A stretch of 64,000 bases of DNA from NCBI GenBank assembly GCA_030018135.1, contig JASEGJ010000001.1:64001-128000 (forward strand), in the 5' to 3' direction. This document shows positions 23,348-54,037 of the stretch, in pieces (positions within the stretch are counted from its first letter, which is position 1; every line of letters starts with the position of its first letter). A program made the position numbers and the translations under genes. Under the pieces are notes generated by a model. That model ran no database searches. It had not been told where the DNA came from and saw nothing but the letters and a program-made list of their open reading frames with translations. The stretch comes from Candidatus Hodarchaeaceae archaeon (GTDB taxonomy: Archaea; Hadarchaeota; Hadarchaeia; Hadarchaeales; Hadarchaeaceae).

Positions 23348-27463
<4,116 letters not shown>

Positions 27464-44328: not shown

Positions 44329-44451
44329 TGGTGGGGTCGCTGGGATTCGAACCCAGGTCCCTGGCTTTTTTGCCCGACCTTGTCCCATTTGGCAGACCAT
44401 TGAGAACTTGATCTTAAGCCAGAAGGATAGGCCAAGCTACCCCACGACCCC
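44329..44451 (-). tRNA. tRNA-Pro(TGG) with two introns: 44388..44415 (33/34) and 44367..44383 (37/38)
   Basis: UGGC UU^A..GCCA AA^U then UUUG GG^A..CAAA AA^A; Pro-type GGGGTCGTGGGGTAG 5' end; CCA encoded. Confidence 0.9.
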
Positions 44452-45807: not shown

Positions 45808-45915
45808 TGGAGCCCCGGGTGGGCTTTGAACCCACGACCTACTGATCGCTTGCCGCCTGGTTACAAGTTTCGACAGCTCACCTTCAGTCGCTCTACCAGG
45901 CTGAGCTACCGGGGC
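45808..45915 (-). tRNA. tRNA-Thr(TGT) with two introns: 45869..45884 (30/31) and 45847..45861 (37/38)
   Basis: CGAC UG^A..GUCG AA^A; CUUG UA^A..CAAG CG^A; CCA encoded. Confidence 0.9.
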
Positions 45916-46881: not shown

Positions 46882-47979
46882 ATGCGCCGCCTGCTAGCTA
46901 GCATGTTCATCACCTCATTCGCCATGGGCATCGTCGGGCTAGTCCTCGTACTCTACGCAAAGGACCATCTAAACGCGAGCTATACCGAGATTGGGCTGCT
47001 CGGGCCAGCGTATGCTACACTCCATGTCCCGCTCTCCGTGCCAGCTGGGCGCCTAGCCGACCGCCACGGCAGGGGGCCGCTTCTCACCCTCGGCCTCCTG
47101 TCGACTGCGTGCACTTTTCTGCTATATTCCCGTGCGAACACCGTGGCTTGGTTGCTTGTGGTGCGCCTGCTGCATGGCGCGGCGGAGGCACCGATCTGGG
47201 TGAATGCTCAAAGCGCGGTGGTCGAGTTTTCGACTCCCATCAACCGCGGGCGGGCGATGGGTGCATATGGTGTATCTTGGGCGACGGGCTTTACGTTGGG
47301 GCCGTTCATCGGCGGTCTGCTGTCCGGAGCCATGCGTCCGATGTGGTCGTTCCTCATCGGCGCCGCCCTAACCCTCCTCGCAGCCGCGGTGACAGCAGGC
47401 GCCCACTTCCATAAGCCGAAGGTAACCCCTGAGAAAATGGCGCTGCGCGGCCTGCTGCCAGCCTGCTTGATAGGCATGCTCTATTTTGGCATAGTCGCCA
47501 TCGTCTTCACCCTCTTTCCGGCCTACGCCAGACAACTCGACATCTCCGAGCCGCGGATAGGGCTGTTATTGGCGCTATTCGGAGGGATCCGCATCGTGTT
47601 TTTGGTGCCCATGGGCGGGCTCTCAGATAGGTTTGGGAGCCGCCCAATCATCCTGCTGGGGATGCTCGGGCTGGCTGCCTCGCTGGCCAGCATAGCCGCA
47701 ACGACGGAATATCTGATGTTCGTCGTCGCGGTCCTATTCCTCGGGATATCGGAGGGTGCGACCTACCCAGCGGTGATGAGCATGGTGTCAAAGGTAGGGG
47801 GGAATGAAAATCGCGGCTACGTGCTCGGTGTATTCAATGCTGTCGCCACGGTTGGCTGGGGCCTGCTACCCGGCGTCGGCGGGCTCACCGCGGACGTTCT
47901 CGGTCCGACGGCACCCTACCTGATGTGTGCACTCATAGCGCTGTCCATGTTTGCCTTCGTGTGGAGGTCCTCGCTGTGA
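46882..47979 (+). CDS. MFS transporter
   Basis: GRLADRHGR, GGLSDRFGSR; about 12 TM. Confidence 0.9.
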   Translation: MRRLLASMFITSFAMGIVGLVLVLYAKDHLNASYTEIGLLGPAYATLHVPLSVPAGRLADRHGRGPLLTLGLLSTACTFLLYSRANTVAWLLVVRLLHGAAEAPIWVNAQSAVVEFSTPINRGRAMGAYGVSWATGFTLGPFIGGLLSGAMRPMWSFLIGAALTLLAAAVTAGAHFHKPKVTPEKMALRGLLPACLIGMLYFGIVAIVFTLFPAYARQLDISEPRIGLLLALFGGIRIVFLVPMGGLSDRFGSRPIILLGMLGLAASLASIAATTEYLMFVVAVLFLGISEGATYPAVMSMVSKVGGNENRGYVLGVFNAVATVGWGLLPGVGGLTADVLGPTAPYLMCALIALSMFAFVWRSSL

Positions 47980-48084
47980 AAGCGTGGGTTGGCGATCACC
48001 GCTTAGATCCGATCCCAGTGTGCTTCGATTTGCCCTAGCTCAGAAAATGGATATGCGTGCCATCAAAAGCTCATGAGTCCAATG

Positions 48085-48203
48085 TGCCGGGGGCGGGACT
48101 CGAACCCGCGATCTCAGGATTTCTCACATCATGGTTGATCAGCACTCACAGCCAGTGGTTTGGGCTATGAGTCCTGCGCTTTAACCAGCTAAGCTACCCC
48201 GGC
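48085..48203 (-). tRNA. Elongator tRNA-Met(CAT) with 45-nt intron 48121..48165 (37/38)
   Basis: CUCA UA^G...UGAG AA^A; G1-C72 acceptor. Confidence 0.92.
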
Positions 48204-48443
48204 TGGTTGATTATTTATTTTTCGATTTTATTTTAACTTGTCGTAAAGGGTCCCACAAACGTTTGGCGCCGGGTCTATGAAATTCACGAGACCTGTTCAA
48301 AGCCCCATTGGGGAACCCGCACCTAAGCTCTTAAAAAAAGTAATAGACGGGTGAGATGTACCGACCGAGAGGACGGAGAGATCGTCGAAAGTATTTAAAA
48401 CCTTTTCTATTGCTGGGGGCTTCTCAAATTACTTCTGAAAAAT

Positions 48444-53940: not shown

Positions 53941-54037
53941 GCGGCCGTGGTCCAGCCTGGTTAGGGCGTTAAGCGCCGCCAAAGGACCCAGGCTCCCCAA
54001 GCCTGTGGCGCGGGTTCGAATCCCGCCGGCCGCACCA
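53941..54037 (+). tRNA. tRNA-Gly(CCC) with 20-nt D-loop intron 53964..53983 (21/22)
   Basis: UGGU UA^G GGCGU..GCGCC GCCA AA^G; CCA encoded. Confidence 0.9.

Follow-up and report, generated by a model that had tools for sequence, protein, structure and literature searches.

Can the intron of an archaeal elongator tRNA-Met gene act as the guide for 2'-O-methylation of the wobble nucleotide, C34, of the very tRNA that it interrupts? The question is raised by a gene on the minus strand of the window, i.e., the 64,000-nucleotide stretch of DNA analyzed here, for which an initial annotation had proposed a guide of this kind. Archaeal elongator tRNA-Met carries Cm34, which is made by box C/D ribonucleoproteins (RNPs), and because the known guides pair with part of the intron, methylation of tRNA-Met precedes splicing (PMC2584109, PMC6601510, PMC4033218). 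These guides are separate sRNAs, namely, sR-tMet of haloarchaea and sR49 of Pyrococcus (PMC2584109, PMC4033218, PMC6601510), and a genomic survey describes the tRNA-Met guide as "always exonic" (PMC2584109). For tRNA-Trp, Cm34 and Um39 are guided by a complete box C/D RNA residing in the tRNA's own intron (PMC2584109), examples being the 103-nt intron of Haloferax volcanii and sR50 of Pyrococcus (PMC2584109, PMC7994747). The background assumed in the initial annotation, an intron guide for tRNA-Trp and a separate sR-tMet for Cm34 in Haloferax, agrees with the available text of these sources (PMC2584109, PMC4033218, PMC6601510).

Structure of the tRNA gene and its intron

The gene extends from 48203 to 48085 (minus strand, 119 nt) and matches the Rfam tRNA family RF00005 with 63.4 bits; in this alignment, the anticodon loop contains an insertion of 47 nt. 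ARAGORN misses the gene with default settings and names it tRNA-Ser when introns are enabled. Parsed by hand, the minus strand reads as a 5' exon with nucleotides 1 to 37 (48203-48166), ending in GACUCAUA, a 45-nt intron at the canonical position 37/38 (48165-48121), and a 3' exon from A38 to A73 (48120-48085). The placement of the intron is based on relatives as well: they give full-length, intron-bearing BLAST matches to the gene, and homologues with U-ending introns (L016, L029, and L037) fix the junction at 37/38. The hand parse yields the acceptor stem GCCGGGG/CCCCGGC followed by A73, the anticodon stem CAGGA/UCCUG, and the anticodon loop CUCAUAA.

Initiator tRNAs are distinguished by A1-U72 and by three G-C pairs in the anticodon stem. 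The gene in the window, with G1-C72 and the anticodon stem given above, is free of these hallmarks. The other CAU tRNA of the genome, which is located at 1321-1441 of contig C40 and has two introns, shares the acceptor stem GGGCCCG with tRNA-Ile(GAU) and was therefore assigned to the Ile2 type. For these two reasons, the gene in the window was taken to encode elongator tRNA-Met. Simple patterns revealed no initiator tRNA in the genome, the assembly of which is 93% complete.

No open reading frame of at least 50 amino acids overlaps the region 47980-48443. Within the AT-rich spacer upstream of the gene, TTAAAATA (48229-48236, minus strand) lies 26 to 33 nt from the 5' end of the tRNA; we take it to resemble an archaeal TATA box. 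A search of sequencing runs with the region 47950-48350 returned five DNA-type runs from hot springs, each with a small share, and no RNA runs among those listed.

Guide, boxes, and register

From 5' to 3', the intron has the order GCCCAAACCACU-GGCUGUGAGUG-CUGA-UCAACC-AUGAUGU-GAGAA; all elements described in the following are on the minus strand. The guide GGCUGUGAGUG (48153-48143) comprises positions 11 to 1 upstream of the D'-type box CUGA (48142-48139), which is invariant both in the alignment A1 described below and in 44 intron-bearing loci of the same order. The spacer UCAACC (48138-48133) would form the loop of a K-loop; the distance from CUGA to UGAUG is 7 to 10 nt in Hadarchaeota. It is followed by the C'-type box AUGAUGU (48132-48126), the core of which reads UGAUG or UGAUU in 48 of 48 cores and the last base of which is U where the consensus has A. 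This last base is at the same time the first of UGAG (48126-48123), the 3' strand of the central 4-bp bulge-helix-bulge (BHB) helix formed with C32 to A35, after which the bulge AA/A contains the 3' splice site (slash). The guide and the two boxes in K-loop order, i.e., D-type box, short loop, and C-type box, were thus recovered exactly as first read, with correct coordinates.

Guide positions 2 to 11 pair with A31 to A37 and intron nucleotides 1 to 3 (ACUCAUA/GCC, the slash marking the exon-intron junction; 48172-48163), forming 10 bp with one G-U pair at U36. The duplex lies next to the D' box, and the G at guide position 5 (48147) is opposite C34 (48169). Two further claims of the initial annotation, a 10-nt pairing across the exon-intron junction and the pairing of the fifth nucleotide upstream of CUGA with C34, are therefore correct. 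The minimum free energy (MFE) structure predicted by ViennaRNA for the whole precursor is the one with the guide:target duplex (-54.6 kcal/mol, z score of -4.74), and none of 200 shuffled sequences was as stable.

Measured against known archaeal box C/D sRNAs, the intron contains an internal C'/D' motif by sequence (CUGA-N7-UGAUG in the window). In place of a terminal K-turn composed of box C (RUGAUGA) and box D (CUGA), it has one C-type and one D-type box in the order D' then C', and in place of the symmetric C-D'-C'-D arrangement with two guides, it has a single guide. It is similar to the tRNA-Trp type in that the guide lies inside the 37/38 intron of its own target and pairs with exon as well as intron bases; it differs from it in its host, which has the anticodon CAU, and in having one guide rather than one for each of the two targets C34 and U39. 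No further conserved box was found in the exons or introns of the tRNA-Met relatives. A second K-turn involving the CUGA that the window copy has in its 3' exon was considered and rejected, as that CUGA is not kept in the relatives. Rfam gave no snoRNA or sRNA family at the locus, the best non-tRNA matches having E values of 0.9 to 8.

Conservation and covariation in Hadarchaeota

Within the genome, the bare K-loop word CUGA-N3-9-UGAUG is not enriched (70 occurrences versus 59 expected), so that the signal resides in the combination of guide and boxes and not in the boxes alone. The pattern RTGAGNNCTGA occurs at 8 sites versus 4.2 expected, and a C' box follows only the copy in the intron.

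A BLAST search with the whole gene, which is unselected for the motif, gave matches in 54 of 61 relatives. Introns of 37 to 50 nt were present at 44 loci from 43 genomes of the same order, and all 44 contain GUGAGUNCUGA, a spacer of 7 to 10 nt, and GAUGAU. By pattern search, the module was detected in 53 of 66 Hadarchaeota genomes, the window's genome being counted, versus 2 genomes for the reversed control pattern; among the good-quality genomes of the phylum survey, it was present in 22 of 26. When the window's genome is left out, the frequencies in the individual families are 39/45 (f1), 5/6 (f2), 1/1 (f3), 7/9 (f4), 0/3 (f5), and 0/1 (f6). Two genomes of f5, a family of the same order, have an intron-less tRNA-Met (L048 and L049 in genomes G043 and G046, respectively); boxes are missing from the 14-nt tRNA-Met intron of one genome from a different family of the phylum and from the 37-nt tRNA-Met intron of one genome outside the phylum. 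A scan of 185,579 species genomes (one per species) yielded 55 loci, consisting of 50 tRNA-Met loci, the records of which are nearly all titled Hadesarchaea or Hadarchaeota, two loci of a second lineage, and three chance matches. The latter three (L071, L078, and L088) are non-tRNA sequences from bacterial bins and were discarded. The module is not a chance occurrence. Conservation of the boxes and the guide in related genomes, which had been suggested as a check, is thus evident in Hadarchaeota, and it extends to a second phylum.

For analysis of individual base pairs, we used alignment A1 of 46 distinct Hadarchaeota genes. These were picked by a regular expression requiring the core, so that the invariance of the core in A1 is partly a result of selection, but the unselected BLAST set agrees with it. 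The UGAGU of the guide, CUGA, and AUGA are invariant in all 46 sequences, while the neighboring loops vary freely. In the 10-bp guide duplex, 99.1% of the cells are paired. Compensatory changes were found in 3 of the 10 pairs, all of them between intron nucleotides 1 to 3 and guide positions 8 to 10: the pair at i1 is AU in 22 sequences, GC in 17, GU in 6, and CG in 1; that at i2 is CG in 43, UA in 2, and AU in 1; and that at i3 is CG in 34, UA in 4, GC in 2, AU in 1, and GU in 1. The covariation score of the duplex was reached by none of 500 shuffles, and slid registers pair in only 28 to 47% of cells. Opposite U36, 37 of the 46 sequences have G, 7 have A, and 2 have U. Over 48 cores, the duplex measures 10 bp in 35 cases, 9 bp and 11 bp in 4 cases each, and 12 bp in 1; in the other 4, it is interrupted by one mismatch. 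Covariation is impossible in the exon half of the duplex, and the evidence for pairing with the anticodon loop is therefore the invariance of UGAGU together with the register; in the splicing conformer, the intron-intron pairs that covary would equally be present, as a small hairpin.

A related module in a second archaeal phylum

The two loci of the second lineage, L075 and L095, have a different intron with the same layout and come from genomes of 0.6 and 0.9 Mb, the record titles of which name Methanobacteriota and Micrarchaeota. Among the relatives of one of the two, the tRNA-Met gene was matched in 24 of 41 genomes. The 17 loci read in this second phylum follow the scheme RUGAGUN-NUGA-hairpin-AUGAU, and at six or more further loci the intron is short and lacks the module. 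Here, a hairpin of 2 to 9 or more bp, highly variable in sequence, makes up the spacer, and a 3-nt bulge and GA come after it; this hairpin between D' and C' covaries, and the boxes have the form NUGA-hairpin-RAUGAU. Judged by its sequence, the motif is a true K-turn with a capped C stem.

In a sample of 301 genomes of the second phylum, the module was found in 89, versus 3 genomes for the reversed control. With the anticodon complement placed one base further from the box (+1) or one base closer to it (-1), matches were obtained in 8 and 14 of the 301 genomes, respectively, and these were chance-like strings outside the hairpin-RAUGAU context. One of the 301 genomes, G122, enters only the denominators and one chance-like match in a shifted-register control. 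That both phyla keep a fixed D'+5 register is the best evidence for a box that gauges the distance to C34.

The same data bear on the idea that the box-like words are by-products of splicing, with an intron that merely complements the anticodon loop and with CUGA and UGAUG lacking any function. The BHB strand must read UGAG or UGGG, and in some second-phylum introns this requirement indeed creates an accidental CUGA near the 3' end. The UGAG copy in the guide, however, is distinct from the BHB strand and unneeded for the BHB, and the boxes stay constant next to loops that change. Moreover, the second-phylum boxes flank a covarying hairpin with K-turn geometry, and within the genome under study NUGA-N3-20-UGAU occurs in only 1 of the 30 tRNA genes, although about 20 of them contain introns. 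A by-product of splicing is hardly credible in view of these observations, and we continue with the guide RNA as the preferred reading.

Competition between the guide fold and the splicing fold

The guide had been predicted to compete with the BHB fold, and this holds: CUCA (nucleotides 32 to 35) is needed by the guide as well as by the UGAG at the 3' end of the intron, so that the guide fold and the BHB helix are mutually exclusive. The helix between C32-A35 and the terminal UGAG or UGGG has 4/4 pairs in 46 of 48 cores (98.9% of cells), and its bulges are U36-A37-i1 and A-A-A38. The BHB layout can be drawn by hand with the anticodon stem (h), the central helix CUCA/UGAG, and two 3-nt bulges; a contiguous h' is absent. 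According to manual reading, the h' strands come from two helices, the 5' strand entering the hairpin of i1-i3 and the guide and the 3' strand running into the C' box. The guide fold is the unconstrained MFE structure in 44 of 48 sequences, and constraining the RNA to the BHB fold costs, on average, 6.6 kcal/mol at 37°C and 4.2 kcal/mol at 70°C relative to the guide fold. Given this large predicted advantage of the guide hairpin, splicing would require a remodeling step.

A hairpin of this kind might serve a purpose other than methylation. The K-loop could bind L7Ae and the hairpin mask the anticodon as a folding or quality-control device in which no methyl group is transferred; the precursor could in this way be kept from C34-directed enzymes (e.g., the agmatidine synthetase acting on tRNA-Ile2) or from aminoacylation, or it could be stabilized against heat. 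Masking is in line with the predicted ground state, in which C34 is buried, with the presence of a second CAU tRNA of the Ile2 type in the genome, and with the poor performance of single-box complexes as site-specific enzymes in vitro (PMC1635284). On the other hand, if masking were the sole function, the spacing of the anticodon complement from the box would not have to be constant, whereas both phyla keep the D'+5 register and the shifted controls lose it, and Cm34 is already known as a box C/D product in archaeal tRNA-Met (PMC2584109, PMC6601510). We consider masking without methylation unlikely and retain a guide for C34 methylation as the preferred reading.

A third helix was noticed in the alignment. 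In most relatives, the spacer between D' and C' (UCAC, CCAC, CUAC, and similar) is complementary to GUGA, GUGG, or GUAG following GAUGAU. In A1, this spacer/GUGR helix (columns 73-76 with 87-90) is paired in 89.4% of cells and contains two covarying pairs; in the window copy it is weak and involves about 48137-48134 and 48127-48124. Its strands draw on bases of the K-loop as well as of the BHB strand; it is incompatible with the BHB helix and, because of its strand connectivity, with the K-loop. One possibility is a state in which the BHB strand or the C' box is sequestered by this helix. Two assignments, to the C stem of a K-turn and to a pseudoknot with the K-loop, were rejected by reasoning, likewise on strand connectivity.

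Protein genes and searches for other guides and targets

The genome contains the genes for fibrillarin (306 bits) and Nop5 (235 bits), the former directly downstream of the latter on contig C5, as well as a gene for L7Ae (106 bits, contig C21) and, on contig C33, one EndA gene for a splicing endonuclease of 189 amino acids. Fibrillarin is also present in two module-bearing genomes of the second phylum, and family f5 retains it despite its intron-less elongator tRNA-Met.

A separate guide for C34 was not found in the genome, the seven other RTGAGNNCTGA sites being without a C box. Three relatives with an intron-less or short-intron tRNA-Met were searched for a separate guide in the same way, and none of the sites read had boxes (4 of 4 sites in G043, which has an intron-less tRNA-Met; 7 of 16 sites in G046; and 7 of 25 sites in G056). 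Given the intron-less tRNA-Met and the sites without a C box in G043, Cm34, or else the route to Cm34 via an intron guide, seems to be dispensable in f5. A strict scan for C-D'-C'-D yielded no hit in the intron and none in the whole genome. With a relaxed pattern for canonical sRNAs, one candidate was detected in the genome (contig C3, approximately 26490-26580, plus strand), which consists of AUGAUGU, 12 nt, CUGA, a GCUUCGGC hairpin, UGAUUA, 13 nt, and CUGA. Its C box, AUGAUGU, ends in U like the C' box of the intron, and a 10-mer search of the genome for its targets gave chance-level matches only.

Rather than methylation in its own precursor, the module might direct another chemistry at C34, such as acetylation, or act mainly in trans after excision, on rRNA or on other CAU tRNAs. 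Some eukaryotic box C/D snoRNAs guide acetylation, and the 7-nt core UGUGAGU of the guide can also pair with any CAU anticodon loop having C32 and A37. In addition, stable or circular forms are known for archaeal introns after excision and for C/D sRNAs (PMC3491384, PMC7994747). Against action in trans, the 5' end of the guide covaries with the first bases of the tRNA's own intron, which indicates selection on this precursor, and a 10-mer search of the genome for other targets of the guide, allowing at most one mismatch, likewise did not exceed chance level. Another chemistry or a predominant action in trans therefore appears very unlikely to us, and methylation of C34 remains the reading on which the following scheme is based.

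Proposed mechanism

With a probability that we estimate at roughly 0.7, the tRNA-Met intron is a real, C34-directed, intron-borne guide of the box C/D type that has a single motif in K-loop form. Comparative evidence, i.e., boxes, guide, and register in two phyla, supports the minimal single-K-loop guide for Cm34 suggested initially, as a putative one. In the proposed scheme, UGUGAGU together with three lineage-specific bases would pair, in its own or a sister precursor, with the anticodon loop plus intron bases 1 to 3, and the resulting 10-bp duplex would end one base upstream of CUGA. CUGA and UGAUG would form the K-loop and bind L7Ae, which would recruit Nop5 and fibrillarin, and fibrillarin would then 2'-O-methylate C34 opposite the fifth guide base. 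Subsequently, CUCA (32 to 35) would refold and pair with the UGAG at the 3' end of the intron, resulting in a BHB that would be cut by the splicing endonuclease. Because the guide and the BHB helix share CUCA, methylation has to precede splicing in this scheme. What we say about action in cis versus action in trans and about the site specificity of a single-box particle, we infer.

A more specific version of the scheme is offered tentatively, as possible but doubtful: the module may represent a natural "hemi" particle with a single K-turn on a covalently tethered substrate, the pre-tRNA being a switch and methylation a checkpoint before splicing. The guide:anticodon hairpin plus the K-loop would license methylation, and the BHB would form only after the hairpin has been resolved; the second box motif would be replaced either by hairpin closure of the fixed 10-bp duplex or by the binding of two precursors per Nop5 dimer. 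If true, the class would occur widely, in no fewer than two archaeal phyla.

In vitro, single-box complexes of Methanocaldococcus were active but not site-specific, specificity requiring two box motifs (Hardin and Batey 2006, PMC1635284). This non-specificity is the main mechanistic objection and at the same time the main point of interest. The synthetic "hemi" box C/D RNPs resemble the module in having one K-turn and one guide, but they are artificial constructs that act in trans and choose their sites without specificity (PMC1635284), whereas in the natural module the target is tethered by a hairpin loop and the duplex has a near-fixed length. If the intron is a methylation guide, it would provide a natural test case for a site-specific one-box C/D enzyme, contrary to the expectation from the in vitro data (PMC1635284).

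Relation to known box C/D systems

The guide in the tRNA-Trp intron and the tRNA-Met module have in common their location in the 37/38 intron of the modified tRNA, the target C34, and the question of action in cis or in trans (PMC2584109, PMC7994747); in both cases the guide pairs with intron bases, so that methylation must come before splicing. They differ in that the tRNA-Trp intron contains both C/D and C'/D' motifs and two guides, whereas the tRNA-Met intron, with its 45 nt, has one box pair and one guide. The tRNA-Trp guide uses L7Ae, Nop5, and fibrillarin, as the module described here would. The separate guides sR-tMet and sR49 address the same nucleotide as the module and likewise pair across the exon-intron junction of the precursor; unlike the module, the guide of which lies inside its substrate, they are encoded by independent genes, act in trans, and have two box motifs.

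The closest precedent is the elongator tRNA-Met of Nanoarchaeum equitans, for which a stable C/D-like RNA has been reported in the 66-nt intron (Randau 2012, PMC3491384). It has one box D, one imperfect box C, and a hairpin of six G-C pairs (PMC3491384). A role as a C/D RNA is proposed for it, but the paper, in which the word "anticodon" does not occur, names no target (PMC3491384). This RNA shares with the module the host tRNA, the position, and the possession of one C-like box and one D box, and its GC hairpin resembles the K-turn stem of the second phylum; the Hadarchaeota form has a loop in place of the hairpin, and the N. equitans paper contains no comparative data. From a comparison by description only, we suspect that the N. 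equitans intron RNA belongs to the same class as the second-phylum module. In view of the N. equitans precedent (PMC3491384), the novelty of the intron guide is smaller than the initial annotation implied. Beyond that report, no self-targeting guide in a tRNA-Met intron was found in the literature searched, which comprised few subscription papers. The K-loop form of Hadarchaeota is a member of a class barely described in print.

If the proposed function is true, the generalization that the Cm34 guide of archaeal tRNA-Met is always encoded by a separate gene (PMC2584109) would be overturned, and the intron RNA of Nanoarchaeum tRNA-Met would gain a likely target and function. The gene would constitute a compact, 119-nt system in which competing RNA folds order tRNA modification and splicing, and this would help to account for the wide retention of the elongator tRNA-Met intron in Archaea.

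Further observations on tRNA-Met loci and other tRNA genes

At four loci of the second phylum (L154, L155, L152, and L144), an extra CUGA is located approximately 10 nt after C' and overlaps the BHB strand (C+UGAG); it could have arisen as a consequence of the splicing helix or else represent a second box, of the D type. At two tRNA-Met loci, L041 (genome G020, contig C85) and L027 (genome G050, contig C1), the 5' part does not form a normal acceptor/D arm, while the loop, the intron module, and the 3' half are intact; an additional intron, a split gene, or an error in the assembly could underlie the odd 5' parts.

Hadarchaeota are already known for their disrupted tRNA genes and for an endonuclease of the alpha4 type, the specificity of which is broadened (PMC5829648). 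In the genome studied here, about 20 of the 30 tRNA genes found with Rfam exceed 80 nt; many have introns at noncanonical positions or more than one intron, and several are misnamed by ARAGORN. Such long or intron-containing tRNA genes are located on contigs C2, C4, C7, C10, C11, C13, C16, C21, C22, C40, and C42 and, inside the window, at 44332-44451, 45811-45915, and 53941-54034.
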